Notes under the pieces: model-generated | Told to the model about the DNA's origin: nothing | What the model saw: only the letters and a program-made list of their open reading frames with translations | Database searches by the model: none | Position numbers and translations under genes: made by a program | Origin: an uncultured bacterium | GTDB taxonomy: Bacteria; Muiribacteriota; UBA6191; CAZXTJ01 | Direction: 5' to 3' | Length of the DNA: 13,738 bases | Assembly (NCBI GenBank): GCA_964643655.1 | Contig: CAZXTJ010000169.1 | Span: forward strand, 1 to 13,738 | Shown here: positions 1 to 13,738 of the stretch, piece after piece | How the letters are laid out: every line of letters starts with the position of its first letter | Numbering within the stretch: position 1 is the stretch's first letter

Positions 1-1955
1 GCGCCATACTGCCCCAACCACATAAAAGGAACCAAATCACTGTCTATGCGATGAAAGATGAGGTAATACTTCAGCACTACCCAAGGCTGTAAAACTTCAT
101 ACCATTTGGTCAGTTCGTTGACTTTTAAAAGACGAGCAGAAAAGAGCAAGGGTGCCAATGCAGCAGCTTGTTTACCCTGTTGAACGAGATTGCGCTCCTT
201 CAATCGTCTCTCCATTTCCTTCCGTGCTTTTTGTCGGCTCTTGTGCAAACGAGCATTTTCTTGTGACCTAACATTGCGAAACTTCTCCATTCCATCGCGC
301 AAGGAATCTATTTCACCGGCAACAGAAGAGAGAGATTGGAGCAAAGAAACGTTTATTCCTTTAGTGAGACGTCTATTGTCCAAGACAGATAGTTTGGGTA
401 ACAAAGTCTCCAAACGCTCTTTTAATATCTCTACTATTTCAACACGACGTTCACCACCACCGCTCAATCTCGTTACGATGGTAATGGCATGGCAATCGAT
501 GGGCAGCTCGGCCAATTGGACGGACATTGAGTCGTCTTTGTTTCTTTTGGCTGCCAATCTTCTTTCGCCCACAGTCTTGGAGCTAATGAATACCTCTGCC
601 ATTCCTTCTGCATTGGCTTTCCAATGAAGACTCACATCCTTGCCTTCTCGATGTGTACGCGCCGCCAGAAGCTCCAATTTAAAGGCGGCTGTTTTGATGC
701 GCCTAGGCAAGGTCGTTGAGCCATCAGGGAAAACTATCTTCATAGCATAAGGTTGATTGTCAGCCAAACCATCTATGATGACCTCATGCTTTTTTGTTGG
801 CTCTTTTCCATTTTTCCCAGCATATGTGAGTGGTCTGACACCACCTTCCAACTGAACCCACGTTCGATAAGCTTGGTGGCTCTGCCAGCTTATGACCATT
901 CCACCGGGCCTAGAGTTAGTGGCCAACATGAAGACGTCATAGTCCTTTTCCTCTTCGCCTGTTTGGTTGGCGATGAAAACACCCAAAAGTACACCGAGCA
1001 AAATGATGATGGCCAAGAGACCGTAGGTCGACTGTGGACCCTCTTCAGGTGGTGGGAGGCTCTTGTTCACAGCTTCAGCGCTCGTTGAGGAATCCAATTC
1101 AGGAGGAATGGTCGAACGGGTGAAAGGAGTCTTTTTAGCTTCGAGCAATGAACAAAGGGCTTTGCCATCAGCGGGGCGCTTTGTCTGCTCTATTGAGCAG
1201 CACTGCTGCAATATTTCTGCAAATTCGCCAAATATTTCTTTCTTACAAACAATAGGGTTGCAGACACCTGAAGCCAAGGAGCGGATGAGCTGTTTCCCAC
1301 TCTGGCCCTCTCGTTCGAAAGGATGCAAACCCGTGGCTGCGTAATAGACGACCAAACCTGCTTGAAAGACATCTCCTGCAGCCGTGAAGTCTTCTCCTCG
1401 CAAAACCTCTGGTGGAGTAAAACGAAGAGTGCCCAAGACTGCACCTTCAGCAGTGAGCGGAGTCCAGTCGACTGGTCGAACGAGACCAAAGTCGACAAGT
1501 CGTATATTGCCATCTGGTTCCAAAAACACATTGTCAGGCGTTATGTCTCGATGGAGTATTCGCCCATCGTGAAGATAACGCAATGCATCAGCCAATCTGC
1601 AGAGCAGAGTTTTTACTGCTTTGGGTTTTAAGGGACCAGATTGAGGTATGACTTTGGACAATGGGGAACCACGAAGAAATTCCATAACGAAATATGGCGG
1701 CGATACATCCAAATCAGCCTGATAAATGTTGACCAACTGAGGATGACGAAGACCTGCCAAGACTGAGACTTCTCTATCCAATCGTGCTCGGGCTTCGGGA
1801 TTTTTTGCATAATGGTCGTGGAGAACCTTGATGGCCACATCTCTTTTGAGCTCATTGTCTTTCGCTCGATAAACGGTACCCATGCCCCCTGAACCAAGGC
1901 ATTGGTTAATGACATACCGGCTGCCATCGCCTACCTGAGGGAAATTCTCAGTCAC
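1..1955 (-). CDS. Hanks-type Ser/Thr protein kinase, single-pass membrane protein with a large extracytoplasmic domain. The GTG start is inside the window; the C-terminus runs off the window start, so the CDS is partial.
   Basis: Translating the minus strand by hand gives one uninterrupted frame from 1955 down to base 1 (about 651 codons, no stop). The ORF track omits it because it never reaches a stop in-window. N-terminus reads V/MTENFPQVGDGSRYVINQCLGSGGMGTVYRAKD. Kinase motifs seen: Gly-rich loop GSGGMG, VAIKVL, catalytic loop LHRDITPDN, VDFGLV, TPPEV. A transmembrane helix (LLAIIILLGVLLGVFIA) is encoded around + coordinates 960-1015. Beyond it lie a beta-rich region and a charged coiled-coil-like region. 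A GTG at 1955..1953 directly follows an in-frame TGA. All + strand ORFs listed in 190..1631 are antisense artefacts of this gene. Confidence 0.88.
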   Translation of the reverse strand, partial: MTENFPQVGDGSRYVINQCLGSGGMGTVYRAKDNELKRDVAIKVLHDHYAKNPEARARLDREVSVLAGLRHPQLVNIYQADLDVSPPYFVMEFLRGSPLSKVIPQSGPLKPKAVKTLLCRLADALRYLHDGRILHRDITPDNVFLEPDGNIRLVDFGLVRPVDWTPLTAEGAVLGTLRFTPPEVLRGEDFTAAGDVFQAGLVVYYAATGLHPFEREGQSGKQLIRSLASGVCNPIVCKKEIFGEFAEILQQCCSIEQTKRPADGKALCSLLEAKKTPFTRSTIPPELDSSTSAEAVNKSLPPPEEGPQSTYGLLAIIILLGVLLGVFIANQTGEEEKDYDVFMLATNSRPGGMVISWQSHQAYRTWVQLEGGVRPLTYAGKNGKEPTKKHEVIIDGLADNQPYAMKIVFPDGSTTLPRRIKTAAFKLELLAARTHREGKDVSLHWKANAEGMAEVFISSKTVGERRLAAKRNKDDSMSVQLAELPIDCHAITIVTRLSGGGERRVEIVEILKERLETLLPKLSVLDNRRLTKGINVSLLQSLSSVAGEIDSLRDGMEKFRNVRSQENARLHKSRQKARKEMERRLKERNLVQQGKQAAALAPLLFSARLLKVNELTKWYEVLQPWVVLKYYLIFHRIDSDLVPFMWLGQYG

Positions 1956-3849
1956 CCTTCAACATCCCGAGCTTCTCGAGTTTTTTATAGAGAGTCGTAC
2001 GGGACATACCAGTCTCTCGAGCTACTGCACGAAGTTTGCCCTGAGAGCGACGAAGAGCGCGTTCGAGGAACACTTTGTCAAAAGCTTCGCGTGCTTCTTC
2101 GTATTCAGGTGGCAACTCTTCTACAGCTAAAGCAGGACCAGCTGAATGGCTGACAAAGGAAGAGCTTCCGCCACCTGCAGCACCAATGGGTAAACTGGCT
2201 GCTGAAACGACTTTGCCTCTTTCGATGACAACGGCTCTTTCGATGGCATTGCGTAATTCGCGGATGTTACCAGGCCATGCATAGGTCTTCAGTGCCTTTT
2301 GCGCATCTTTGGAAAACTTTTTCAGTTTGCGACCAAATCGAGTGGCAAAGGTTTGCAGAAAGTGTTCGGCTAGGGGCACCACATCTGCACCTCGTTCGCG
2401 CAGCGGTCTCAATCTCAGTCTGAAGACATTGACGCGATAATAAAAATCTTGTCTGAAGGTGCCATCTTGCACCTGCCGTTCGAGATCGGCATTTGTAGCG
2501 CAAACCAACCTGATGTCCAGAGGGATGTCATCTTGGCCACCGAGGCGCCTAATCGTTCTCTCTTGAAGGACACGAAGCAATGTAACTTGAACGTCCAAAG
2601 GTAACTCACCAATCTCGTCCAAGAACAAAGTGCCACCAGAAGCAAGTTCGAAACGACCCAATCTCTTTTCCAAAGCACCAGTGAAGGCACCTTTTTCCGC
2701 ACCAAAAAGCTCTGCTTCTATGATGTCTCTAGGCAGAGCAGCACAGTTCACGGCAATGAATGGACCACTAGAGCGACTAGAACGCAAGTGCAATTCGCGA
2801 GCAACCATCTCTTTGCCTGTGCCTGTTTCACCTGTGATTAGCACAGTAATGTCTTGTGCAGCTGCAGCGTCAATGTGTTCGATGAGTTCTTTTGAAGCAG
2901 GACCATCACCTGTGACGAATACATTGCTGTCATTTTCCAAACGCCTCATGGCAGCAATTGTTGTCGTAGCTTCTACCAGTTGGCGTCTTGTCTGTTGGGC
3001 CGCAACGAGCTCTGCAGCGAGGCCAGTCACAACCTCGAAGAATGGCTGCTGTTCTTCAGTCCATGGCCTATCGGTACGTTTTTTATCGAGATAGATGACA
3101 CCAACTGCACGTTGATTGGCCAACAAAGGCGCACATAATATGGCGCGCGGCATGGTGGAAACGGCTAGGCTAGGAGCACCTGCACAACGAGAATCTCGCA
3201 GAGAATCTGCAATTGCCAAAACTTCTTTTTCTTCTAGAGCGTTGGCACAGACAGTCTTTGATATTGCCTCGCACTCTTCACCGTCGACCAATCCACGAGC
3301 AGCAACTCGTACCAAAGTATGGCGCTGTCCTTCCAAGAGGACAAAACCTCGCTCTGCGTCTACAAAATCGATGAGTCCATCTAGAAGACGCTCGAGAACC
3401 TCCTGCGGTTTTGAAGAGGAACGCAGCCCGTCAATAAAAGCTGAGAAGGGCTGCCAATCAGTGGACTTTTTCCCGCCACTGTTCAACTGAATATCTATGG
3501 CGCTTTCGGCAGTGATCTTTTTGGCACGAAGAGCATTGGCCGAAGCCAAAGGGCTGTCGCTCATTTGTATTTGCAAGTCGTCGATGACAACGACATCCCC
3601 TAAGTGAAGAGCGGCATCTCTCACTTTTTCGCCATTGAGATAGGTACCCATGGAGCTCTTGAGGTCGCGAATATGATATTTGCCACCTACCTGGTAGATC
3701 TCGGTATGTCGGCGAGAAACACGTGTACCAAAGAGCATGACGTCGCAGTCGTCGCCCTTGCCCAAAACAGTACTTGCTGAAGTGAGCTTAACAGCGTTAA
3801 AAAAACGTTTCGGTGAATCTGTCGTCCCAATGAGGAGCCACCAAACCAC
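1948..3849 (-). CDS. Sigma-54-dependent transcriptional activator (enhancer-binding protein) with N-terminal FHA domain, central GAF domain, AAA+ sigma-54 interaction domain and C-terminal Fis-type HTH
   Basis: 633-aa ORF. FHA hallmarks are present: VSRRHTEI (SxxH) and TYLNGEKV (NG). GAF-like region spans about residues 150-300. AAA+ motifs: Walker A GETGTGKE, GAFTGA motif (EKGAFTGA), Walker B LFLDEIGEL. C-terminal HTH: RAVARETGMSRTTLYKKL. The GTG start at 3849 has AAGGAA 6-11 nt upstream. Its stop overlaps the downstream kinase start (GTGACTGA). Confidence 0.92.
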   Translation of the reverse strand: MVWWLLIGTTDSPKRFFNAVKLTSASTVLGKGDDCDVMLFGTRVSRRHTEIYQVGGKYHIRDLKSSMGTYLNGEKVRDAALHLGDVVVIDDLQIQMSDSPLASANALRAKKITAESAIDIQLNSGGKKSTDWQPFSAFIDGLRSSSKPQEVLERLLDGLIDFVDAERGFVLLEGQRHTLVRVAARGLVDGEECEAISKTVCANALEEKEVLAIADSLRDSRCAGAPSLAVSTMPRAILCAPLLANQRAVGVIYLDKKRTDRPWTEEQQPFFEVVTGLAAELVAAQQTRRQLVEATTTIAAMRRLENDSNVFVTGDGPASKELIEHIDAAAAQDITVLITGETGTGKEMVARELHLRSSRSSGPFIAVNCAALPRDIIEAELFGAEKGAFTGALEKRLGRFELASGGTLFLDEIGELPLDVQVTLLRVLQERTIRRLGGQDDIPLDIRLVCATNADLERQVQDGTFRQDFYYRVNVFRLRLRPLRERGADVVPLAEHFLQTFATRFGRKLKKFSKDAQKALKTYAWPGNIRELRNAIERAVVIERGKVVSAASLPIGAAGGGSSSFVSHSAGPALAVEELPPEYEEAREAFDKVFLERALRRSQGKLRAVARETGMSRTTLYKKLEKLGMLKGD

Positions 3850-3965
3850 TGCAATTTCCTTTCATCGAGCTCTATACGTTCTAGCTAGTGTACTATACTT
3901 GTTGGCGTTATCCGTAACTTGTTACTCATCAGGACATCTCTATGTGTTTCGAAAGGTAAATTATC

Positions 3966-4508
3966 ATGAAAATGACCATTGAAGAACGGTTGACTCAGCT
4001 CGAGAAGAGCAATCTCAGATGGCAACGTTTGACTGCAATACTCTGCCTTCTTCTGGTCACTCTGGGCATTATGGGAGCAAAACATATTGGCCGGACAAAT
4101 GTTGCCATTGGCCAATTGCGGCTGCTCAACAGAGAAGGCAAACTTCGTGCAGTCCTTGGTGTAACCAAGAATGATGCTGCTTATCTGGCTTTGCGCGACA
4201 AAGAGGGAAAAGTACGTTGTCATTTGAGCCTCGACAAAAAAGGAACTCCGAGCCTAACGCTGAATGATGAAAAGGGAGAGAAACGGTGCATTCTCAGTCT
4301 CTTTGACAAAGGCTGTAATCCCAGTATGATTTTTTATGATGGCGAACAAAAACGTCGTCTCTCATTGACTACAGTGCCCCCTGCCCTCATTTGCAACAAT
4401 CACAATGGCAAACCTAGAGCAGTTCTAGGCGTGAGCAAAACAGGTGCCGGAGCATTTTCCTTGGAAGACGTTCATGGTCGTCCCATAGTCTTCAAACGTC
4501 TTAAATGA
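3966..4508 (+). CDS. Hypothetical membrane-anchored protein built from tandem repeats of about 22 residues (consensus approximately L-x-D-K-E-G-K-x-R-x-x-L-S-L-x-K-x-G-x-P-S-L)
   Basis: 180-aa ORF with AAAGGT about 9 nt upstream of the ATG. N-terminal coiled segment, then a hydrophobic helix LTAILCLLLVTLGIMGA. After that come 5-6 degenerate repeats: GKLRAVLGVTKND / GKVRCHLSLDKKGTPSLTLND / GEKRCILSLFDKG / QKRRLSLTT / GKPRAVLGVSKTG. I recognise no known family. Confidence 0.6.
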   Translation: MKMTIEERLTQLEKSNLRWQRLTAILCLLLVTLGIMGAKHIGRTNVAIGQLRLLNREGKLRAVLGVTKNDAAYLALRDKEGKVRCHLSLDKKGTPSLTLNDEKGEKRCILSLFDKGCNPSMIFYDGEQKRRLSLTTVPPALICNNHNGKPRAVLGVSKTGAGAFSLEDVHGRPIVFKRLK

Positions 4509-4514
4509 TTCTCG

Positions 4515-4847
4515 CTATTTTGTTGGAGGAGTCACTTTTGGAGCTGTTTTAGAACCTTTGGGAAGAGGAATATTAGGCAGTATTCCTTTTTTCTGGAGCA
4601 ACTGAGCAGCTCTTTTGACTTTAGGATCTTTCAATGCTGCCATAATTTGAGGCAAACCAACGCCTGGCTTGAGCAAACCAGCTTGCTGAATGATTACTGC
4701 AGCTTGTTTGACCTGTGGATCTTCTGAATGTAATGCCTGAGCTATGGCCGCTCTAATCTGGTCGGGATTAAAACCAAAGGCAATAACGTTAGAAGCGCTC
4801 AGGAGCAGGAGGGCCACGGCCAAAAGTAGTCCAGTGCGTCGTAACAT
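4515..4847 (-). CDS. Small secreted protein with signal peptide and two HEAT/PBS-lyase-like repeats (DPxVKxAAxxLQxxGxL)
   Basis: 110-aa ORF. Strong RBS: AGGAGG lies 7 nt upstream of the ATG at 4847. N-terminus MLRRTGLLLAVALLLLSASNVIA is a typical Sec signal peptide. Repeats: DPQVKQAAVIIQQAGLL and DPKVKRAAQLLQKKGIL. Pro/Lys-rich C-terminal tail. It sits 96 nt downstream of MVP on the same strand, with no obvious terminator hairpin between them. Confidence 0.65.
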   Translation of the reverse strand: MLRRTGLLLAVALLLLSASNVIAFGFNPDQIRAAIAQALHSEDPQVKQAAVIIQQAGLLKPGVGLPQIMAALKDPKVKRAAQLLQKKGILPNIPLPKGSKTAPKVTPPTK

Positions 4848-4943
4848 CGTTGTTTCCTCCTATATAGGAAATATCGGTAAAAGAATGATCATGTTTTGTT
4901 GTCAGGCATAATAAGGAGCCCTCAGAAAAGGTCAACCCCCTCA

Positions 4944-7478
4944 TTATTCACCACTCTCTTCTTGCTCTTTTTCCTCTTCAGTCAAGGCTTTCAGCCCTTC
5001 AGCCAAAGGACCAGTGCCTGCTATCATTTTGCTCAATGCATCCATACCTCCTCGGCCCAAGAGCAAACCAAGGCCTCCTGTGGCTTGAGGAAGATGTTCG
5101 GCCAGTTTTCCTGCCAAAGCTTGATTTCCATGCGTTTTTATCGCTGCCACGAGGTCTGGTTGTATGGCTTCGAAACGTTTCACGAAAGCCTCTGCTTGAG
5201 CACCGAGTTCCTGTAATCGCAGCACCATTTGAGCTTCCTCGAACTGTATCTGTTGGTCTCTCGCGCTCTTTTGTCGGGCTAATTCAGCTTTTGTAATTTC
5301 GTCTCTCGTTGTCTGAGAAGCCAGACGACCGCTGAGCTCAGTCTCTGTTTCCCGTGACTGAGCATTGATTTTGGCCAAATCGATACCCAATTGCAGATTC
5401 ACCTCTTCTTGTTGCAATAAGAGCTCTTTTTCTTTGGTGGCTGCTCTTGCCTGGGCAAGTTCTTGGCGAATGCGTTCCTCTTCACGAACCGTTTCCAATT
5501 CTTTTCGTGCCATAGCCAAACGGAGGGACTGTTCCACTGAATCCTTCTGACTAGAACGAACCATCTCTGCGATGGCTGAGTCGCCAATCTCCAATTTGCC
5601 AAACTCAACGTCATAAACACGCATGCCATTTTCTGGGAACAATCGACCTGGACGTTTACCTTCGACAGTTTCTCCCAAGATTGCATTTCTCAAGATATCG
5701 ATGTAATTCGTGTAAAACTCCTGAACGCCATACTTTTTCACTACATTGGCCACGAGTGATCGTGTGTGATCTGTGAGGAATTTCACGTAATTCTCTACAT
5801 CGAACCATTTGCTCTTGTCCCCTTCGAAGTCAACTCGGAAAGAGAGTGGTATTCGCACTGAGACAAAGTCTCCAGTTTCCGCAGCAATCAAATCAGAGAC
5901 CTTGTTTGCTTTGACACGCAGATAAACATCTTTTCGCAATTGATAGTCAGACTTTGGAGTTCCTGTTGATAGCTCGATGACCTCTGGTAACTCGTCATAT
6001 TGCAACAACACTGTCTGTGGTCCTTCAATAACTCTGCTTTCACCAGTTTTTGAAACAACTTTGATGGCATAGCCCGTATGTACTCGCACAGTAACGGCAC
6101 CATCATATTTTGTTTTCAGCTGTATGGAACGAGGTGGGACGTATTCGTTGGAACGAGTGAACTCGTCAGCCGTCAATTCGGGCTCTTCACCACTTCCAGT
6201 TTCATCGTTATTGAGTAAATTGATGCCTTTTTTGCTTCTTGCTTTCCTGGCAGTAGGATTGAAGATTCCTTCCAATCCCAAAAGGGAGAGATTGTGTGAA
6301 ACTGCCTCTTCATTACCGGGATAAAGTAACTCGACGATGGGGATGGGCAGAGTCCGTCTGACGATGACTTCATATCTGGGATCAGGCAAGTACATTTTGG
6401 GACCCAAGACCAACTTTACGTCACCAGTCTCCTTGGAGAGCACATAACGGGCTTCTCCTTTGGGTATTGCCACAGCCTGCTGTAGCAGCTGGTCACCACC
6501 ATATTTGATGATTGCATGTTCAGGACGTGGATAATATATTTTCTGGTCTTTTCCCGTAATGAAGAGCTCTTCACCCTCAGCATATTTTTTGCCATCTTCC
6601 TCATAGGGTTTGATCACTTTTACATACAAACCACGGTGTGTCTCGAGCTCAATGGCCTTTATCTTCCTCTCACCTTTGTGAGTTTCATGGAAAGACTGAG
6701 TTGGCCGAGGAAAAACGACGGCTGGTCCATTGACATACTCTTTGGTACCATTCTCGTCTATGAGAATACAGGTTTCCAGCTGTTCGAGAGTGACGGCGTC
6801 GCGTACATATTTACCACACTCAGGAACGACTTCCATTCCCGTAGGTGGAATGTAAAAAGAAACCTCTGTGCCTTTCACAACGAGAAGCTGACCTGTAACC
6901 AAATCTGGTGTGGAAGCATCGGGGAAAATTTCACCCTTGTTTTCATCTGTAATCTCTTCAGTAGAATTGGTCTGTTTTTTGAGGACTGCATTCTTCCAAT
7001 TTGATTTGGCCACTTCACCATTAATGACGCGAACGACTAAATATTGGTTAGAGCGGAGAATGTGGCCATCTAGGCAAGTGGCTGATTGACCTGGGTAAAG
7101 AGCAAAAGTTGCGGGACCTGGTATATTGACTCTTCGCCCCATTGCCAGTTCCACAGAGCCCTGTTTTCCTCTTGATGGGTGGCGATGTTCGTCTTCTTCA
7201 ACAGGATTTTGTAAAACGATATATTGCCCCTCTTTTGCTGCAGGCCACATTGTTACTGCTGATTTGAGGAGGCAACGTTGGAATGATTGAGTTTTGCTAT
7301 CAAAACGAACTGGATTGTCTGTCTCACCAATACTCGTCTTTGTTGGTCCTACGTGCACTTCCACAGTACCATCGGCGCCATTTTGCACGAGGGCTTGTTC
7401 TCCTTGAGCCAGAACGAGATCGCCGCCTCGCTCTCTCATTTCGCGAATATCCCTGTCATACTCTCTGTTGCTTCCCAT
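4944..7478 (-). CDS. mvp: Major vault protein (MVP) homolog: vault shell protein with N-terminal vault repeat domains, a shoulder (SPFH-like) domain and a C-terminal cap-helix coiled coil
   Basis: The maximal ORF is 4944..7505 (853 aa), which begins with TTG. An ATG at 7478 preceded by GAGAGGA (about 8 nt) is the more likely start. The product aligns by eye along its full length to eukaryotic MVP. N-terminus: [39 protein letters not shown] against human [30 protein letters not shown]. Repeated vault-repeat-like units of about 55 residues follow. Shoulder: [42 protein letters not shown] against [62 protein letters not shown] against [20 protein letters not shown]. A long Q/E/A/R-rich cap-helix follows. 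C-terminus: [19 protein letters not shown]...[11 protein letters not shown] against [20 protein letters not shown]...FGLLGMGPEG. Acidic C-terminal tail. Confidence 0.85.
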   Translation of the reverse strand: [844 protein letters not shown]

Positions 7479-7526
7479 TTTGTTGTCCTCTCTCGGTGCT
7501 GCCAATATTGTCTTTTCTTGTTCATA

Positions 7527-7542
7527 TGCAATCTTCTCGCCG
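7527..7542 (-). promoter_or_regulatory. Weak sigma-54-like -24/-12 candidate upstream of MVP
   Basis: The minus strand reads cGGCGAgaagaTTGCA: GG/GC spacing is correct and the -12 TTGCA is perfect, but the -24 hexamer matches only 3 of 6 (CGGCGA against TGGCAC). It lies 48 nt upstream of the ATG at 7478. If real, it argues against the TTG start at 7505. Confidence 0.25.
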
Positions 7543-7640
7543 ACAAGTGACTATCTTGTACTGATGGGCCTTTACACGATCTCAAACAATGCATCCGTAA
7601 CAGTTCTTTACGTTTTCCAGCACTTCGTTACGTTTACAAT

Positions 7641-7691
7641 TTGACAATAAGGAGAGGATCTTTGACATCTTGGGTCAAAGTCGCCTAGTTT
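7641..7691 (+). promoter_or_regulatory. Sigma-70-like promoter candidate for the nitroreductase/flavoprotein operon, with a palindromic operator-like element overlapping its -35 and spacer
   Basis: Two TTGACA hexamers (7641..7646 and 7662..7667). The second is followed after 18 nt by TAGTTT (7686..7691). The palindrome CTTTGAC-N7-GTCAAAG (7660..7680) spans that -35 and spacer. An AGGAGGG RBS and the ATG at 7717 lie downstream. Confidence 0.35.
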
Positions 7692-7716
7692 GGAACCTTC
7701 AGGAGGGAACAATCAT

Positions 7717-8217
7717 ATGGACGCGATCCTGACAAGACGCAGCATAAGAAAATTCACAGAGCAAGAAGTTACTGAGGAACAGTTGACTTCCATATTAAAA
7801 GCAGCAATGGCGGCTCCATCAGCTGGTAATGCCCAACCCTGGCAATTCATCGTCATTCGAGACAAGATAACCATGGAGGCAGTGACGGGTTTCCATCCCT
7901 ACGCCAAAATGTTGCCCGAAGCTTCAGTTGCAGTTGTCGTATGCGGAGATCTTTCATTGGAGAAATTCGAAGGTTTCTGGGTACAAGACTGCTCGGCAGC
8001 AATTCAAAACATTCTTTTGCAAGTAACAGCCTTGGGGCTTGGGGCCGTGTGGCTCGGAGTACATCCCATTCAAGAACGTGTCGTCGGTGCCCGAGAACTC
8101 TTTGGTATTCCCACCAATGTCATTCCTCTGGCCATCATTCCTATTGGGTATCCAAATGAAAGTAAAGAATCCGTCGACAGATATCAAGCTGACAGAATTC
8201 ACGATGAACGTTGGTAG
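7717..8217 (+). CDS. Nitroreductase-family flavoprotein (NAD(P)H:FMN oxidoreductase fold)
   Basis: The ORF track starts it at 7690, but AGGAGGG lies 8 nt upstream of the ATG at 7717, giving MDAILTRRSIRKF. Canonical nitroreductase N-terminus (RRSxRxF, then EEQLxxILxAAxxAPSAGNxQPWxF). About 166 aa. Confidence 0.85.
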   Translation: MDAILTRRSIRKFTEQEVTEEQLTSILKAAMAAPSAGNAQPWQFIVIRDKITMEAVTGFHPYAKMLPEASVAVVVCGDLSLEKFEGFWVQDCSAAIQNILLQVTALGLGAVWLGVHPIQERVVGARELFGIPTNVIPLAIIPIGYPNESKESVDRYQADRIHDERW

Positions 8218-8232
8218 TTGGGGAGGAAAGAG

Positions 8233-8811
8233 ATGAAAGTCGTAGCATTCAACGGAAGCCCACGCAAAAACGGCAATACTAACGAATTGTTGCAGGTCCT
8301 TCGCAGCCGTCTCGAAGAAGCCGGCATAAAATACGAGCAAATTGATATCTGCAAATCTCATCCTCGTGGTTGTACAGCCTGTTATGCCTGCGTGAAAAAT
8401 CAGGACAAAAAATGTGTCATCGCCACAGATCCACTCAATGAGTGGGTGGAAAAGATGATAGAAGCAGACGGTATCATTCTCGCCTCACCTACATATTTCT
8501 CTAACGTAACTTCAGAGATGAAGGCCCTCATCGATAGAGCTGGTTTAGTGGGAAAAATCAATGATTGTGCTTTTAAGCGCAAAATTGGTGCAGCCGTCGT
8601 TGCTGTTCGACGAGCTGGTGCATTGCCCACCTTTGACGCCATGAACCACTTCTTCCAAATCAACCAAATGATGGTTGTCGGTTCTAGCTACTGGAACCTT
8701 GGCGTCGGTCGCGAACCAGGTGAAGTCAAAGGCGATGAAGAAGGCTTGCAAACAATGAAGGATTTGGGCGACAACATGGCTTGGTTGATCAAAAAAACCA
8801 AGGGTGAATGA
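8233..8811 (+). CDS. Iron-sulfur flavoprotein (Isf-like) of the NADPH-dependent FMN reductase/flavodoxin-like family, with a compact CX2CX2CX7C cluster motif
   Basis: GGGAGG lies 7 nt upstream of the ATG at 8233 (MKVVAFNGSPRKNGNT...). The track's 8218 start is in-frame but lacks an RBS. Flavodoxin-like_2 signature: GSPRKNGNT...ADGIILASPTYF. Cys cluster: C-KSHPRG-C-TA-C-YA-C-VKNQDKK-C. It starts 15 nt after the nitroreductase stop, so the two are a probable operon. Confidence 0.8.
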   Translation: MKVVAFNGSPRKNGNTNELLQVLRSRLEEAGIKYEQIDICKSHPRGCTACYACVKNQDKKCVIATDPLNEWVEKMIEADGIILASPTYFSNVTSEMKALIDRAGLVGKINDCAFKRKIGAAVVAVRRAGALPTFDAMNHFFQINQMMVVGSSYWNLGVGREPGEVKGDEEGLQTMKDLGDNMAWLIKKTKGE

Positions 8812-8815
8812 TTTG

Positions 8816-10768
8816 TTAGTCGGCCATGTAAGTTTTCAGTAGCGGAGTCAATCGATCATATTCTGATTCTAAGACAGAAAGCGTTTCTGGAGCGCCATCC
8901 AAACATCGGTGTCGCCCCATATCACATAAACGACTGGCCATATCCCCTACTCCGTGGGCACCAATATATCCTGCTGCACCTTTGAGTGAATGAGCCGCTT
9001 CATGCATCTCGTCAACATTGGCCCGCCCCACAGCAATTCTCAACCTCTCTATTCTCTGAGGAGCATCAGAGAGAAATGTGCTAATGAGACGATGAAGCAA
9101 TGAACGATTGCCATTGACATGACGTAGGGCTTCTTCAGAATCAAATGGAACTGAGACTCGTTTTTTACAAGATGTAGTCTCAATCTTAGCCTTTTCTGAG
9201 TTTTCCTCGCCTGGTCCTGCAGCCTCTTCAGTGGCAATGATGAGCTCTTTGGCAATGACAGGTTTGTTGAGAATGGAGTCGGCTCCAGCTGCAATAATTG
9301 ATTCTCTGCGGCGCATATCTGTATTGGCCGTTACGGCAATGATGGGCGTATAACGACTCATGGTAGATTCCAGCTCACGCATTCTCAGAGTCGTTTGTAC
9401 ACCATCGAGAACAGGCATGGAAAGATCCATCAAAATGATATCAAAAACTTCTCTTTTAAAGAGATAGAGAGCTTCTGCTCCATTCTCGACGACAGAGACC
9501 TGATGGCCACGAGCATTCAAAATCTCAAAGGCAAACTCACTATTGACTGGATGATCTTCAGCAATGAGAACTTTGAGCGGACGATGACACTCTTTTTCCA
9601 CTTGGCCTGTGACCAAAACCACATCTTCCATTTTTGGTGGATGATCCAATACTTGCTCAAAGGTTGTAATCAACTCCATACCTATGATTGGACCAATGAG
9701 AAGATGAATGTGGTCCAGTCTCAAAAGAGCATCCATGATTTCCATAGCTTTTTCTGGACAGAGGGAAATTATCAAAGGTAAGCCAGGTGAGATTCGGCGT
9801 ATCTCGTTGACCATATCACGGATATTTTTCGCATGGATACCAACGCCATCAATATAAGCTGCACCATATTGCTGTCCTTCCACTTTGCTACATGCCAATA
9901 AAGTTTTTACCTCTCGCAATGAACCCACAAAAGTTGATGTTGCCCCGCGGAAGACGAGAAGTTCATCAATCCATTGGCGATGGGATGCACAGTGCGAGAC
10001 TATCATGGTTTTATGACCAACGAGAGAGTTGCGTTCAACCACTTCTCCGTAGTTATTTTCAAACTGAGTCAGTCTTATCTCATATCGCAAGTCATGCTCT
10101 CTTGCAGAAAAACCTGTTGGGACCTTTGCAAACAAGGGTGACGAGATTGGCAGAGCAAAATCACTGATCAGACGAGCTCCATTGTCATCACATTGAACAC
10201 TGAACAATATCTCTATTTCTTTGGCGCTCTCTAGGTGCATGATTGTGGATATTGCCTTTTTTAGCTCTCCTGCCAGGTTTGGTGCACTCACAGTCACATT
10301 TGTGGCCGTTGGAGAAGAAAAACTTGGACGCAAAATTTTTCCATGTTCACAGCCATCAGGTGCCAAGGACCAGATGACCTGCCCCACGAGACTATCCAAT
10401 CTTTGCGGCGCACAAGAATAATCCATTGTAGAAAGAAGAGCTTGCGATAGATTTGTCATGGCTTTGGAGAAGATGCGAGACTCCCAAAGAATGTCTCTGT
10501 TGATAGCTCCTTGAGCAAGTTTTGTCATTGTCAGCAGTGCAGACTTCGTTTCAACGTCCAAACCCTTCCTCTTTTTATCATGTCTCTTCTTCTTTGCATG
10601 AGTTACAAAAAACTTACTCCTCTTGAAAAATGCCACTGCCGTGGCTATGGCACAGCAGGTCATAGAAAGGGCAAATGGTGAATTGTAGAGTGCTATGGCG
10701 AAAGCCACGAGGGAAATTGTCATGAGCAACATGCGCTCGAGTTTTGTGCTCTCACGAGAGATTGTCAT
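8816..10768 (-). CDS. Membrane protein with receiver (REC) and C-terminal histidine phosphotransfer (HPt) domains. The N-terminal and central region has no recognisable histidine-kinase H-box or ATP-binding boxes. Putative phosphorelay intermediate.
   Basis: 650-aa ORF. AAAGGAG lies 5 nt upstream of the ATG at 10768. Two N-terminal hydrophobic segments: MLLMTISLVAFAIALY and ALSMTCCAIATAVAFF. Intact REC at about residues 398-510: KVLIAEDH...ILMDLSMP...AVTAN...LNKP. HPt at about residues 545-640 with HSLKGAAGYIGA. Residues 240-390 look like a degenerate pseudo-receiver. The gene ends 4 nt from the convergent flavoprotein gene. Confidence 0.75.
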   Translation of the reverse strand: MTISRESTKLERMLLMTISLVAFAIALYNSPFALSMTCCAIATAVAFFKRSKFFVTHAKKKRHDKKRKGLDVETKSALLTMTKLAQGAINRDILWESRIFSKAMTNLSQALLSTMDYSCAPQRLDSLVGQVIWSLAPDGCEHGKILRPSFSSPTATNVTVSAPNLAGELKKAISTIMHLESAKEIEILFSVQCDDNGARLISDFALPISSPLFAKVPTGFSAREHDLRYEIRLTQFENNYGEVVERNSLVGHKTMIVSHCASHRQWIDELLVFRGATSTFVGSLREVKTLLACSKVEGQQYGAAYIDGVGIHAKNIRDMVNEIRRISPGLPLIISLCPEKAMEIMDALLRLDHIHLLIGPIIGMELITTFEQVLDHPPKMEDVVLVTGQVEKECHRPLKVLIAEDHPVNSEFAFEILNARGHQVSVVENGAEALYLFKREVFDIILMDLSMPVLDGVQTTLRMRELESTMSRYTPIIAVTANTDMRRRESIIAAGADSILNKPVIAKELIIATEEAAGPGEENSEKAKIETTSCKKRVSVPFDSEEALRHVNGNRSLLHRLISTFLSDAPQRIERLRIAVGRANVDEMHEAAHSLKGAAGYIGAHGVGDMASRLCDMGRHRCLDGAPETLSVLESEYDRLTPLLKTYMAD

Positions 10769-10802
10769 GAGGCTCCTTTCATTTTCGAACTTTTAAAGGC
10801 TA

Positions 10803-10818
10803 TGCAATCTCTCTGCCA
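10803..10818 (-). promoter_or_regulatory. Sigma-54 (-24/-12) promoter candidate for the membrane REC-HPt gene (8816..10768), divergent from the one above
   Basis: The minus strand reads TGGCAgagagaTTGCA: GG and GC have correct spacing and the -12 TTGCA is perfect. The predicted TSS is about 24 nt upstream of the ATG at 10768, with a AAAGGAG RBS in between. Confidence 0.55.
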
Positions 10819-10874
10819 CAGGTGAATGTGCCTCTCTAGAACGAAAGCCCTTTCCAAAGGCAATAGATGAGGCT

Positions 10875-10905
10875 TTTCACTATGGCAATGTGAAACAAGT
10901 GTCAC
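10875..10905. promoter_or_regulatory. Inverted-repeat cluster between the two divergent sigma-54 promoters: candidate enhancer (UAS) for an EBP
   Basis: TTTCAC-tatggcaat-GTGAAA (10875..10895) overlaps GTGAaacaagtgTCAC (10890..10905). There are also two GGCAAT copies. A T-rich tract (10906..10925, possible bend or IHF site) follows, toward the + strand promoter. Confidence 0.4.
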
Positions 10906-10929
10906 TTTTTGTCTTCTTTTTCAGCTTCG

Positions 10930-10947
10930 TTGCGCATTTTGCGCATT
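10930..10947 (+). repeat. Perfect tandem direct repeat TTGCGCATT x2, abutting and overlapping the first base of the -24 element
   Basis: TTGCGCATTTTGCGCATT is visible directly. Each copy contains the palindrome TGCGCA. The last T is T1 of TGGCAC. Confidence 0.5.
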
Positions 10948-10962
10948 GGCACGAAGCATGCA
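10947..10962 (+). promoter_or_regulatory. Sigma-54 (-24/-12) promoter candidate for the response-regulator/pseudo-HK operon
   Basis: TGGCACGaagcaTGCA: the -24 element TGGCACG is perfect, and GC is at the exact -12 spacing (aTGCA against TTGCA). It lies about 46 nt upstream of the ATG at 11008, leaving room for a 5' UTR of about 35 nt with a GAGGAGG RBS. Confidence 0.6.
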
Positions 10963-11007
10963 GATGGGCGACTAGGGGAATCTGAGGCAGTCCTTTGAGG
11001 AGGAAGA

Positions 11008-11604
11008 ATGAAAATATTGATAGCCGATGATGATGCCATGTCCCGCCAACTGCTCAGTGGTTTGGTCACTGAGTGGGGTCACGAACCAGTTACGGCCGAA
11101 AATGGTGAAGAAGCTTGGCAAATTCTGACTGAGCAAAAGCTGCAGTTCATCATCGTAGATTGGATGATGCCCCGCCTAACGGGAGTAAATCTCTGTGAAA
11201 GAATACGAGCAAGTGAACTTGATCAATATATCTACATCATTCTTCTCACTTCACGAAAAGATGCAGATGAAATCGTGACCGGTCTCAATGCAGGTGCAGA
11301 TGATTATGTGACAAAACCCTTTGATGCTCGGGAGCTGGAAGTGCGCCTCAATGTTGGTATTCGTGTACTCGATTTGGAGCGCAGATTAGAGGAAAGAGCT
11401 CGCCAAGCAGAGGAACAGCTTCAGCAGATCAACAAGCTGGAAAGCCTCATTCCAATTTGCTGTGAATGTCGACAAGTGCGCGATGACAAGAATTACTGGC
11501 ACAAAGTAGAAACTTATCTAGCAAAACGCACACCAGCAAAATTCACACACACCTTGTGTCCTCATTGCTACAACAAAGCTATGGCCGAGATTGAAGCAGC
11601 TTAA
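11008..11604 (+). CDS. Response regulator: canonical receiver domain, then a coiled-coil linker and a C-terminal Cys/His-rich zinc-ribbon-like domain
   Basis: 198-aa ORF. RBS GAGGAGGAAG lies just upstream. REC residues: ADDD, IIVDWMMP (phospho-Asp), LLTS, VTKPF. C-terminus: IPICCECRQVRDDKNYWHKVETYLAKRTPAKFTHTLCPHCY (C-C-x-C ... C-P-H-C). The stop TAA overlaps the next gene's ATG (TAATG). Confidence 0.85.
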   Translation: MKILIADDDAMSRQLLSGLVTEWGHEPVTAENGEEAWQILTEQKLQFIIVDWMMPRLTGVNLCERIRASELDQYIYIILLTSRKDADEIVTGLNAGADDYVTKPFDARELEVRLNVGIRVLDLERRLEERARQAEEQLQQINKLESLIPICCECRQVRDDKNYWHKVETYLAKRTPAKFTHTLCPHCYNKAMAEIEAA

Positions 11605-13738
11605 TGAAAAAAAGGTCTATTCATAGGTGGTTGGACGAAGTAGCTCGCTCTGGAGACACAAAATCCTGTTTGGCAGTTCTAAAAGAACTAGTCAACTCAC
11701 TACCTGACTACTTCGAACACAGCAAGGAGACTGCTGTCAGACTCATCCATGATGACCAAAATATAGAAACACAAAAATTTTGCAACACAAAATCCAAACT
11801 GCAGTTTCCCATTTGTGATGGAAACAAAGTACGAGGTTCTTTGGAAGTCTGCTATCTTCAAGACTTTCCTCTGGCCGACGAAGGTCCCTTTAGAGAAGAA
11901 GAAATTGAGATAGTAAAAACAGCTGCCCGCATTGCTGGTTTTGCCTTAGAACGTTGTCGAATGTTTGCAGAAAGACATCAACTGAAGGCTTCCGCAAAGG
12001 GTTATGCCCACACGAGTGGTCAAGTCATTGCTGCACTTCGTTATCAAATGAGAGCTCCCCTCAATGGCATCTTGGGTTTTGCAGAAATGCTTCTTGAAGA
12101 TCAGCTCACTCAAGAGCAAAGAGATGCTGTCAATGCCATTCAATCTGGTGCCGACTCCGTCCTCGACATAACAGATTCGATTTTGGATTATGCTCGTCTC
12201 GATGCTGATGAATTGGAACTGGACAAGAAAGAATTCTCTCTTTCTGCCTTAGTGAATGGGCTCACAGCTTCAATCGAAAAACGAACAGGTCGTTTGATTG
12301 ATATCAAAAGTGAGCTGCCACCCAAACTGAGTTCAGTTATCGGTGATAGCAGACGCTTGCGGGAGGCTCTGGAGAGCTTGGTTTCTTATTGCGCTTCATT
12401 GGATGTGGAAAACACAACAAAAGCCAACATCTACGTTGAACAAACTGACGATACTCTTGACCTCAACATGGAGGTCTATGGTCCACATGTAATTCACTCT
12501 TCCCTTTCTGAAGAGCAATTGTTCAATCCCTTCGAAGGAAAAGCGGAGTATGACATTCCAGAGAAGGCTGCCTTGGAATTGGCCATTGCACGTGGTTTGT
12601 CACGACAAATGAATGGCGATCTCATTCTGGACAAAGTGGATGACAAGGTCATTTTTCGCCTTTTCGCAAGATTACCACGACCTTCAGCCGAAGAAAATGC
12701 TGGGGCAAATCATGCACCTGACGCATCATTAAAAATACTCGTTGCAGATGACAGTAAAGTCATTAGGGTCTTGGCCTCGAAGATATTGACGGGTCTGGGC
12801 CATCAAGTTGATTTGGCTGAAGATGGTGCTCAAGCCCTTGCCAAAGGTGCTGAAGACAAACACGATCTCATTTTGATGGATCTGAACATGCCCAACATGT
12901 CAGGTTTTGAAGCTACGAGAGCCCTGCGAGAGAAAAAAATCAAAACACCCATAGTCTCAATCTCATCTTCTGCTCTGGCAGAGGATAGACGTCAAAGCTT
13001 GGAAAGCGGCATGAGTGGTTTTGTCACTAAACCATTCAAACGTAACGATCTTCGTGCCGTCCTTTCCGAACACTGTGGTGTTCAGTCTCAAGCAGATAAA
13101 AAAGAAGAACCACTCAAAGTACTCATCATCGATGATGACAAAGTCATGCGAAAACTAGTGCGTATGGTCGTGAAAAGAACCTATCCCAATGCTGTTGTCA
13201 AAACTGCAGATGATGGATTGGAAGCTTGTGCACTCTTGGGTAGCTTCTTACCTCGATTAGTCATTACCGACATCATCATTCCTGGTGTAGATGGTGTTGC
13301 TGTAGTCCGCTTCATCAATGAACGAGAACGGTACAAAAACACAGCTGTCGTCGCCATGAGTTCCCTTGGAGTCGATGATGATAGAGTGAGAACTCTCAGA
13401 AGACTGGGTGCAAAACAAATACTACCTAAACCCTTTGAGTGGAATGTCTTTTCACAGGCTGTCAGTGCTGCACTGAATGATGATTCTCTTTCAGCAGATA
13501 CCTTGGAAACAGAGAAACCCAAAATTGTCCCCATGCCCATTCCCTTTGACGCAGGCACAACAGAAGTACCCATTTGGGACATCAACAAAGGATTACGCTC
13601 TGCCGGCGGTTGTTCTAGTCTCTTGAGTTCAGTCGTTGGTGTATTTCTCGATGATGTTCGAGTACGTTTTGATGCCCTCGTTGATGGTATGGAGCAAGAG
13701 GACCTTTCCTGTGTACAAATGCAATCACACACCTTAAA
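11604..13738 (+). CDS. Hybrid sensor histidine kinase-like protein with a degenerate (probably catalytically dead) kinase core, two receiver domains and a C-terminal HPt domain. Partial: the 3' end runs off the window.
   Basis: A hand-translated open frame runs from the ATG at 11604 (overlapping the response-regulator stop) to the window end, with no stop. The ORF track omits it. N-terminal 130 aa are GAF/PAS-like. The HisKA-like helix reads AALRYQMRAPLNGILGFAEMLLED. The Tyr codon at 12042..12044 sits where the phospho-His of the SHELRTPL motif belongs. HATPase_c-like region: IGDSRRLREALESLVSYCASL (N-box Asn replaced), G1 box EVYGPH, G2 box AALELA in place of GxGLGL. REC1 at about 12732..13080 (KILVADD...LILMDLNMP...TKPF). 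REC2 at about 13117..13450 (KVLIIDDD...LVITDIIIPGVDG...LPKPF). HPt begins near 13560 and ends at the window edge inside the QSHTLK motif. Confidence 0.8.
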   Translation, partial: MKKRSIHRWLDEVARSGDTKSCLAVLKELVNSLPDYFEHSKETAVRLIHDDQNIETQKFCNTKSKLQFPICDGNKVRGSLEVCYLQDFPLADEGPFREEEIEIVKTAARIAGFALERCRMFAERHQLKASAKGYAHTSGQVIAALRYQMRAPLNGILGFAEMLLEDQLTQEQRDAVNAIQSGADSVLDITDSILDYARLDADELELDKKEFSLSALVNGLTASIEKRTGRLIDIKSELPPKLSSVIGDSRRLREALESLVSYCASLDVENTTKANIYVEQTDDTLDLNMEVYGPHVIHSSLSEEQLFNPFEGKAEYDIPEKAALELAIARGLSRQMNGDLILDKVDDKVIFRLFARLPRPSAEENAGANHAPDASLKILVADDSKVIRVLASKILTGLGHQVDLAEDGAQALAKGAEDKHDLILMDLNMPNMSGFEATRALREKKIKTPIVSISSSALAEDRRQSLESGMSGFVTKPFKRNDLRAVLSEHCGVQSQADKKEEPLKVLIIDDDKVMRKLVRMVVKRTYPNAVVKTADDGLEACALLGSFLPRLVITDIIIPGVDGVAVVRFINERERYKNTAVVAMSSLGVDDDRVRTLRRLGAKQILPKPFEWNVFSQAVSAALNDDSLSADTLETEKPKIVPMPIPFDAGTTEVPIWDINKGLRSAGGCSSLLSSVVGVFLDDVRVRFDALVDGMEQEDLSCVQMQSHTL

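Follow-up and report, generated by a model that had tools for sequence, protein, structure and literature searches.

[quoted passage not shown] All parts listed by the initial annotation were present. The window is an ordinary chromosomal stretch of an uncultured bacterium with about six transcription units, two of which are regulatory modules (A and B), and the arrangement is a lineage-specific combination of already known signalling parts that does not amount to a new type of system. The conservation evidence is based on the corresponding locus in the sole close relative (L001; mean protein identity about 75%), where the entire gene order of the window is kept. Gene order is kept only at this level of mean protein identity, at which synteny of adjacent operons is expected anyway. 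The scan of GTDB species representatives and JGI metagenome contigs yielded no relative above 52% MVP identity.

Module A encodes a transmembrane Hanks-type Ser/Thr kinase (1..1955, minus strand; Pkinase 3.8e-45, Pfam) and a 633-aa sigma-54 enhancer-binding protein with the Pfam architecture FHA-GAF-AAA+-HTH_8 (1948..3849, minus strand). The kinase reading frame exits the left end of the window; its first 651 aa lie inside, and the orthologues are 785 aa (L001) and 783 aa (L168) long. The motifs GSGGMG, VAIK, HRD, and DFG are all intact, and the kinase looks catalytically active. One strong hydrophobic segment (aa 308–333) forms the TM helix between the cytoplasmic, N-terminal kinase domain and an extracytoplasmic C-terminal region, for which no family match was found. 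In the activator, Pfam matched both sensory domains that had been claimed for it (FHA, 3.8e-15; GAF, 1.5e-13), together with Sigma54_activat (2.2e-68) and HTH_8 (7.9e-8). The activator also carries Walker A (GETGTGK), Walker B (DEIGE), and GAFTGA motifs, and its orthologue in L001 is 76% identical. The GTG start of the kinase gene overlaps the TGA stop of the activator gene by 8 nt (GTGACTGA), and the same overlap occurs in L001 and L168. This agrees with the proposed joining of the two genes and supports their assignment to one operon, which in relatives contains an additional third gene, TerB-DnaJ. The link from kinase to activator is further backed by the paralogues of the activator in L001's assembly, which repeatedly adjoin Pkinase genes.

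Activators of this kind have precedents, as FHA-domain sigma-54 activators of Myxococcus xanthus were reportedly the subject of work by Jelsbak, Givskov and Kaiser in PNAS in 2005. The M. xanthus genome is rich in Hanks kinases. The window protein resembles these activators in being a sigma-54 AAA+ activator that carries FHA instead of a receiver at its N-terminus, with phospho-Thr as the presumed input. Unlike them, it has a GAF domain that separates FHA from AAA+, and its gene is overlapped by that of a kinase. Moreover, Gly-Lys replaces the canonical Gly-Arg of the FHA domain throughout its orthologue group. Since this Arg normally contacts the phosphate, the substitution weakens the proposed role of the domain as a phospho-Thr reader.

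None of the three relay genes of module B encodes a functional histidine-kinase core; between them they contribute four intact receivers along with two HPt domains. The response regulator (198 aa; 11008..11604, plus strand; Response_reg 1.3e-26, Pfam; 88% identical in L001) consists of an intact receiver and, C-terminal to it, about 75 aa that contain a CCEC...H...CPHC motif and for which no family match was found. Its TAA stop overlaps by 1 nt the ATG (TAATG) of the gene for a pseudo-histidine kinase (11604..13738, plus strand; HisKA 1.1e-14 and two REC domains, Pfam). The order of domains in this pseudokinase is GAF-like, DHp, degenerate CA, REC, REC, and HPt. The contig end cuts the protein within the HPt domain at QSHTL, and the domain is complete in L001 (770 aa). 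The operon of a response regulator and a REC-REC-HPt pseudokinase was thus recovered as originally described. In the DHp domain, Tyr replaces the phospho-accepting His (RYQMRAPLNGILGF aligns to SHEIRTPLNGILGF), and none of the N, G1, and G2 boxes is retained. The Tyr, the DHp domain, and REC2 are nearly invariant in L001, whereas the remainder of the protein diverges. Only one close cluster was found for the pseudokinase among 1.84 billion representatives, and its best matches of solved structure are histidine kinases, RetS (3.8e-17) and DivL (1.1e-8) among them.

The divergently oriented gene of module B (8816..10768, minus strand) encodes a 650-aa kinase-dead derivative of a hybrid kinase, as indicated by Pfam matches (REC and Hpt) and an AF2 model. 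A hydrophobic N-terminus is followed by a DHp-like hairpin that lacks the His, a CA-like fold, a pseudo-receiver, REC, and HPt. Alignment to hybrid kinases indicated the loss of the N, G1, and G2 boxes from the CA-like fold, while REC (Asp in ILMDLSMP) and HPt (HSLKG) are intact. The best fold match of the AF2 model (mean pLDDT 69.7) was full-length ShkA (518 aligned columns, E 2e-15), and a single true orthologue was found, 58% identical in L001. The initial annotation called this a membrane REC-HPt protein; REC and Hpt were confirmed, and the evidence for "membrane" consists of two N-terminal segments of moderate hydrophobicity (mean hydropathy <1.8 computed, about 1.7 by hand). The alignments and the model support the view that neither of the hybrid-kinase-like proteins has a functional kinase core, in line with the claim that every kinase-like core of the relay is degenerate.

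With all catalytic motifs lost, both proteins could be relics that are being lost, so that module B would have no present function. Such decay would also fit with the single close relative that each protein has in very large databases, and with the fast divergence of the 650-aa protein. We consider it highly improbable, because both genomes keep long intact reading frames, the pseudokinase stays almost constant in its DHp and REC2 amid divergence elsewhere, the receiver Asp and HPt His residues are intact, and the promoters (see below) are conserved.

Known pseudokinases offer closer parallels. RetS of the Pseudomonas aeruginosa RetS-GacS network, which shares the DHp-CA-REC-REC order, modulates another kinase and does not signal by its own autophosphorylation (PMC8498467). 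However, in RetS both the His and an ATP-binding fold are retained, and the sensor is periplasmic (PMC8498467), whereas the window pseudokinase has Tyr for His, lacks the N, G1, and G2 boxes, and has a GAF-like input and an attached HPt. DivL of Caulobacter (PMC4211667) likewise carries Tyr where the phospho-accepting His would be, within a strongly constrained DHp, and in both cases the ligand could plausibly be a small response regulator. DivL differs in that it is an alphaproteobacterial cell-cycle protein with PAS inputs and an ATP-binding CA fold, and without REC or HPt (PMC4211667). The Tyr was described as unique to DivL (PMC4211667); judged by sequence, the window pseudokinase is an independent second case. 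The 650-aa protein follows the DHp-CA-pseudo-receiver-REC order of Caulobacter ShkA (PDB 6qrj) in its AF2 model. ShkA is an active kinase, whereas the 650-aa protein is without the His and the ATP-binding motifs and has an HPt appended.

The 239-nt spacer between the divergent genes of module B contains two outward-pointing -24/-12 promoters with one mismatch each. One precedes the 650-aa gene (TGGCAGAGAGATTGCA; 10803..10818, minus strand; TGGCAGGGAGATTGCT in L001) and the other the response-regulator/pseudokinase operon (TGGCACGAAGCATGCA; 10947..10962, plus strand; TGGCACGAACAATGCT in L001). The whole window has three one-mismatch matches vs 0.71 expected. Between the promoters lies an inverted repeat, TTTCAC-N9-GTGAAA (10875..10895), a candidate shared enhancer (UAS) centred at about -93 and -88 relative to the two inferred start sites. 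A 6-bp arm by itself is without significance, as the spacer has 13 inverted pairs. The repeat is unique in the window with up to two mismatches allowed, and no second copy was found there, including near the activator's own gene or upstream of MVP. In L001, both promoters and the repeat are conserved islands in an otherwise diverged spacer; the repeat falls in its best-conserved block, where the core TCAC-N9-GTGA alone is kept. The predicted back-to-back sigma-54 promoters, with an inverted repeat as candidate UAS, are present.

We somewhat favour a wiring in which the kinase acts on the activator, the activator on the divergent promoters, and these on the supply of the pseudokinase relay, with MVP, both small ORFs, and the reductase pair as passengers. 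The kinase would sense an extracytoplasmic cue and autophosphorylate. The FHA domain of the activator would read the phospho-Thr of the kinase, with GAF as a second input, which would release the AAA+ motor. The activator would then bind the UAS repeat, and both divergent promoters would fire. As the induced relay proteins cannot phosphorylate themselves, they might provide another histidine kinase with a phosphate sink or a connector, as in the case of RetS. Alternatively, the Tyr-bearing DHp might sense the phosphorylated response regulator encoded just upstream, in the manner of DivL.

That the activator acts on these promoters is inferred from proximity. In support, no other sigma-54 activator gene and no HATPase_c gene was found in the 22.5 kb read around MVP in L001. 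Furthermore, the recognition helix of the activator is identical in its three orthologues and differs in paralogues. A paralogous activator at another locus of L001's assembly (L167) adjoins two sigma-54 promoters with their own repeat (GTGGTCC-N8-GGACCAC), so that nearby targets seem to be usual in this lineage. The same paralogue can be read differently, since its targets are directly beside it, unlike those proposed for the window's activator, which is 7 kb and five genes away from the promoters and has no repeat copy near its own gene. In addition, L001's assembly has at least three paralogous activators, i.e., at least four FHA-GAF activators altogether, and another of them could serve the UAS site. 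Modules A and B might thus be real but unconnected, with the promoters served by an activator encoded elsewhere and the targets of the FHA-GAF activator outside the window. We regard this as possible though rather unlikely, because both the recognition helix and the core of the repeat are preserved at the orthologous loci, whose gene order is the same, and L001's 22.5 kb offers no second activator.

The vault gene itself (4944..7478, minus strand) encodes an 844-aa MVP homologue (MVP_shoulder 4.9e-22, Vault_3, and Vault_2; Pfam), which matches solved eukaryotic MVPs colinearly across aa 297–784 (6e-18) and has over 5,300 homologues in bacteria and metagenomes. It belongs to the same protein family as the bacterial MVPs whose sequences are known from Myxococcales, Cytophagales, and cyanobacteria (bioRxiv 10.1101/872010) and the phage MVPs (bioRxiv 10.1101/2023.11.10.566534); nothing on the regulation of MVP homologues was found in the text consulted. 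The weaker -24/-12 candidate noted upstream of MVP is present (CGGCGAGAAGATTGCA; 7527..7542, minus strand), with three mismatches and non-consensus -24 flanks; 0.15 such sites are expected in a spacer of that size.

If MVP were also sigma-54-transcribed under the same kinase-activator pair, the 14 kb would be one circuit governing a vault-like particle. Consistent with this, both the candidate and its L001 counterpart have GG and TTGC, equally far from the ATG, in an otherwise unalignable stretch, an inverted repeat occurs about 88 nt upstream in L001, and MVP sits between modules A and B in both genomes. However, that inverted repeat is unlike the UAS repeat in sequence, and TCAC-N9-GTGA is absent upstream of MVP. 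We also compared the neighbourhoods (within 10 kb) of 160 other, distant bacterial MVP loci. Homologues of the window's lineage-specific parts (FHA, GAF, orf110, orf180, reductases, and the N-terminus of the REC-HPt protein) were found near MVP at none of the 160. Generic Pkinase, REC, and HisKA-core matches occurred at 7 to 16 loci, and any sigma-54 activator at four, all of one lineage. Sigma-54 consensus sites upstream of MVP genes were not enriched (7 found vs 5.4 expected). We therefore consider a vault-governing circuit improbable. The tie of MVP to the kinase-activator and relay modules is not supported by these sequence comparisons, and neither is the suggestion of the initial annotation that the vault gene may be a circuit member; its gene-order check held for the one close relative, but MVP is not co-conserved with these genes across the distant loci. 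The window thus adds a lineage-specific neighbourhood to the MVP family, not a conserved one.

The remaining genes lie on either side of MVP. The small protein orf180 (3966..4508, plus strand; 69% identical in L001) has a TM anchor and short repeats within its sequence; it had no match in Pfam, NCBIfam, PADLOC, or PHROG and is probably a bystander. Downstream of MVP, a small protein with a signal peptide (orf110; 4515..4847, minus strand; 89% identical in L001) has its own sigma-70-like promoter (4935–4908). A nitroreductase (7717..8217, plus strand; Pfam; 77% identical in L001) and an NADPH-dependent FMN reductase (8233..8811, plus strand; Pfam; 87% identical in L001) form a bystander operon. 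Upstream of this pair, a perfect inverted repeat, CTTTGAC-N7-GTCAAAG (7660..7680), overlaps a TTGACA hexamer within a block conserved in L001 and is likely the operator or promoter of the reductase operon, outside the circuit.

The window is a complete metagenome contig of 13,738 nt with a GC content of ~46% throughout, and a 12,052-nt overlapping copy of it is held under ENA ERZ925706 (project PRJEB15404), the sampled material being a biofilm from a hypersaline lagoon, formed on beads of plastic or ceramic. It contains ten genes, and all the elements named in the initial annotation were recovered in it. Two groups of these very probably represent real modules: an operon encoding a transmembrane Hanks-type Ser/Thr kinase and an FHA-GAF sigma-54 activator (module A), and three His-Asp relay genes with two divergent sigma-54 promoters and a shared inverted repeat (module B). 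The closest relative (ENA ERZ21869580 contig_17; locus L001) has the same ten genes in the same order, with protein identities of 55–89%. Because this order is expected for neighbouring operons at a mean identity of ~75%, its conservation is weak evidence for function. As relatives of intermediate distance for footprinting, only L001 (MVP identity 80%) and a 5-kb fragment (L168) were found, and there were no close relatives among the GTDB representatives scanned. None of the window proteins reached the cut-off of any NCBIfam model, an Rfam search for RNA genes gave zero matches at E up to 1, and no rpoN gene is present in the window. A defence or phage reading of the window was rejected, because the PADLOC matches were limited to generic ones to kinase domains and AAA+, with none for the major vault protein (MVP) homologue, and PHROGs gave zero matches.

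The kinase gene of module A (1..1955, minus strand) runs past the left contig end. Its product was assigned to the Hanks type by its Pkinase domain (Pfam, 3.8e-45), in which the Gly-rich loop, the VAIK Lys, HRD and DFG are all present at residues 21, 40, 135 and 155, and it has a single strong transmembrane segment. The GTG start of this gene overlaps the end of the activator gene (1948..3849, minus strand), including its stop codon, by 8 nt, and the overlap is identical in two relatives. The activator (FHA-GAF-AAA+-HTH_8) is a bacterial enhancer-binding protein with a Sigma54_activat AAA+ domain (Pfam, 2.2e-68) that carries Walker A (GETGTGK) at residue 340, the sigma-54 contact loop GAFTGA at 387 and Walker B (DEIGE) at 411, followed by a C-terminal Fis-type HTH (HTH_8, Pfam, 7.9e-8). 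The arrangement of the two genes described in the initial annotation was thereby confirmed, with all catalytic motifs of the kinase in place. The gene overlap supports a predicted signalling step from kinase to activator, as does the recurrent location of activator paralogues next to Pkinase genes. The FHA domain (3.8e-15) contains the phosphopeptide residues SRRH and NG, with Gly-Arg changed to Gly-Lys; the Arg of Gly-Arg is the usual phosphate contact of FHA domains. At this position (residues 31-32; window 3754-3759, minus strand), Gly-Lys is shared by the three orthologues, while the paralogues mostly have Gly-Arg, with Gly-Ser in a few. In the relatives, a third overlapping gene follows the activator-kinase pair and encodes a protein with TerB and DnaJ domains (L001:17927-19495 and L168:4472-5086). 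The left end of the window is reached before the position of any TerB-DnaJ gene.

The relay genes of module B encode a 650-aa REC-HPt protein (8816..10768, minus strand), a 198-aa response regulator (11008..11604, plus strand) and a HisKA-REC-REC protein, hereafter the pseudokinase, whose gene begins at 11604 (plus strand), is the second of an operon with the response-regulator gene and continues past the right contig end. The window was searched for sigma-54 promoters with TGGCAC-N5-TTGCW, one mismatch being allowed, which returned three sites (0.71 expected). Two of the three occupy the 239-nt spacer that separates the divergent relay genes, and they point outwards on the correct strands, with the respective start codons 35 and 46 nt away. 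The third site (4434-4449, minus strand) lies inside orf180 (3966..4508, plus strand), is absent from L001 at the same stringency and was taken as a chance match. The spacer also contains the inverted repeat TTTCAC-N9-GTGAAA (10875-10895), which occurs as a single copy in the window; its centre lies ~93 nt from one inferred start site and ~88 nt from the other, upstream in both cases. When the spacer was aligned with that of L001, the conserved islands consisted of both promoters, a ~26-nt block with the core TCAC-N9-GTGA and an adjoining GCCTTTGGAAA block, set in diverged flanks. The two back-to-back promoters and the repeat, as originally described, are present, both predicted promoters being one-mismatch sites that are kept in L001. 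A putative pair of promoters with an enhancer is well supported in silico, from this one comparison. In addition, the perfect tandem repeat TTGCGCATT TTGCGCATT (10930-10947), which contains two TGCGCA palindromes, lies directly against the -24 element of the promoter of the response regulator, and it is not kept in L001.

Every kinase-like core of the relay had been considered degenerate, which proved correct for both hybrid-kinase-like proteins. The H-box of the pseudokinase is RYQMRAPLNGILGF, compared to SHEIRTPLNGILGF in solved kinases, so that Tyr replaces His, and its N, G1 and G2 boxes are likewise replaced in the alignment to solved kinases. When the 650-aa protein was aligned to hybrid kinases, its H-box was without His and its N and G2 boxes were lost, with the fold retained. 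Neither protein gave a HATPase_c match in Pfam. Judged from their sequences, the kinase cores of both proteins are dead.

The best solved matches of the pseudokinase are histidine kinases including RetS, a hybrid-kinase-like modulator that acts independently of kinase activity (PMC8498467), with DivL lower in the list. In DivL, a pseudokinase that senses the phosphorylated form of a response regulator, Tyr stands in place of His, and this Tyr has been called unique to DivL (PMC4211667). The pseudokinase shares the substitution and would be the second histidine-kinase fold of this kind, outside the DivL family, where the substitution apparently arose independently. Among the 1.84 billion representative proteins scanned, a single close cluster was retrieved, after which the score fell from 480 to 154 bits, at the level of ordinary GAF-kinases. 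The pseudokinase is 68% identical to its L001 counterpart overall, whereas the Tyr, the whole DHp and the second receiver are almost invariant, which argues for selection on a binding rather than a catalytic surface. The Tyr is residue 147 (12039-12044, plus strand) and is kept in L001 within the almost invariant DHp.

Only one true orthologue of the 650-aa protein was found. Its AlphaFold model (mean pLDDT 69.7) shows a helical hairpin and an alpha/beta domain whose lid is disordered, followed by a receiver-like fold, then a receiver, and finally an HPt of four helices. Among solved structures, full-length ShkA gives the best fold match to this model, over 518 columns; the 650-aa protein differs from it in having no H-box His. 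The receiver-like fold (aa 253-375) is a pseudo-receiver without the acidic pair and Lys. Real receivers are represented by four REC matches in Pfam, with Asp, Ser/Thr and Lys read directly in the sequence, and the HPt domains keep their key residues (HSLKG at residue 593 of the 650-aa protein and SHTL(KG) at 708 of the pseudokinase). As for a kinase that feeds the relay, neither the window nor the 22.5 kb around the L001 MVP gene contains a HATPase_c gene. The C-terminal ~75 aa of the response regulator (11370-11601, plus strand) contain a CCEC...H...CPHC Cys/His motif, have no Pfam or NCBIfam match and may form a zinc-binding output domain. In a reading even more speculative than the sigma-54 control of MVP discussed below, the pseudokinase Tyr would be a substrate of a neighbouring Hanks kinase.

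A link from module A to module B is plausible, and we consider it about equally likely to hold or to fail. The activator HTH and the 10875-10895 repeat, a candidate binding site, are co-conserved in L001, and this activator is the sole sigma-54 activator in the 22.5 kb around the L001 MVP gene. All three orthologues share an identical recognition helix, MSRTTLYKKLEKLG, which differs in the paralogues. Furthermore, a paralogous activator in the assembly that holds L001 directly adjoins two sigma-54 promoters with GTGGTCC-N8-GGACCAC; since these promoters are adjacent to the paralogue and have a different repeat, paralogue-specific local regulons appear to be the pattern of the lineage. On the other hand, the activator is separated from the module B promoters by 7 kb and five genes, and it belongs to a large family: the L001 assembly encodes at least four members, so that another might serve these promoters instead. 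Also against the link, the FHA Arg is Lys in this orthologue group, and the repeat has no second copy in the window or L001: zero additional copies were found in their intergenic regions at up to two mismatches outside the orthologous site. At the locus of the paralogous activator (L167:5740-7960), each of the two promoters is a one-mismatch site preceded by its own GTGGTCC-N8-GGACCAC. The activator gene there is flanked by three Pkinase genes, and the promoters lie upstream of an operon that ends in two HSP20 genes.

The MVP gene (4944..7478, minus strand) encodes a protein with the shoulder and repeat domains (Pfam) of vault proteins, and aa 297-784 are colinear with aa 299-814 of solved eukaryotic MVPs (6e-18). 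The MVP assignment is sound. Bacterial MVP homologues are very numerous. They have been described in silico only, with a function given as unknown (10.1101/872010). In the initial annotation this gene was a possible part of the circuit, with conservation of the gene order in related genomes as a check. We examined 160 distant MVP loci (80 from genomes and 80 from metagenomes; identity ≤52%; ~1.9 Mb of flanks). Homologues of the lineage-specific parts (FHA, GAF, small ORFs, reductases and the 650-aa N-terminal region) occurred at 0 of the 160, and the cluster was found only in the window and L001. Kinase genes were near MVP at 15 of the loci, and activator genes at only four, all of one syntenic lineage, NtrC-type and 6–8 kb away; three of these loci are labelled Vulcanimicrobiota or Synergistia, and the fourth lies on a metagenome contig that carries no label. 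A general linkage of MVP with signalling genes was rejected on these counts. Sigma-54 consensus sites were not enriched upstream of MVP genes either (7 found and 5.4 expected in 162 upstream regions), and the MVP gene of the window has no shared enhancer repeat upstream. On this evidence, the vault gene is not, or at least not detectably, part of the circuit, and the unsupported link is very unlikely.

The weaker -24/-12 candidate noted earlier at the MVP gene does exist (7527-7542, CGGCGAGAAGATTGCA). It has three mismatches, with 0.15 such sites expected by chance in the spacer. In its favour, L001 has retained exactly GG and TTGC at the corresponding position, equally far from the ATG, in a stretch that is otherwise unalignable. 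It is unlikely that MVP is a sigma-54 target through this conserved GG-N10-GC and that the Ser/Thr-kinase and FHA-activator pathway proposed for the relay activates it too. If this were so, the site would offer a first point of access to the regulation of a bacterial vault-protein homologue, together with a cue for particle production. At present, the locus sheds no light on the function of bacterial vault proteins, the position of MVP being lineage-specific.

FHA-type sigma-54 activators are familiar from kinase-rich genomes such as Myxococcus. As these activators, RetS, DivL and bacterial MVPs have already been described, the parts of the locus are of known kinds, and we found no paper on how bacterial MVP genes are regulated, nor any that describes this arrangement. 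Specific to it is a fully kinase-dead relay that would be transcribed under putative sigma-54 control beside a kinase-activator operon. From the reading of the whole 14 kb as one circuit, modules A and B were retained, their connection is plausible only, and the vault link was dropped. If the wiring is true, Ser/Thr-kinase signalling would set the composition of a His-Asp network by transcription rather than phosphorylation, via induced kinase-dead hub proteins. The promoters, repeat and activator are small enough for reconstruction in E. coli.

Further features were observed around the MVP gene. Immediately downstream of it, orf110 (4515..4847, minus strand) encodes a small protein that has a signal peptide and contains the internal repeat KxAAxxxQxxGxL twice; it is 89% identical to its L001 counterpart, above the 80% of MVP itself. 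Upstream of the nitroreductase (7717..8217, plus strand) and FMN reductase (8233..8811, plus strand) pair, a perfect 7-bp inverted repeat CTTTGAC-N7-GTCAAAG (7660-7680) overlaps a TTGACA hexamer; it recurs in L001 and probably serves as the operator of some repressor. The second-closest MVP (53% identity; L163:10001-12607 and L164:323-2929) is encoded on a 338-kb JGI contig with >50 short same-strand ORFs and with dUTPase, NUDIX, PDDEXK and Zn-ribbon genes. This contig looks like a jumbo phage, which fits the phage MVPs reported in a preprint (10.1101/2023.11.10.566534).
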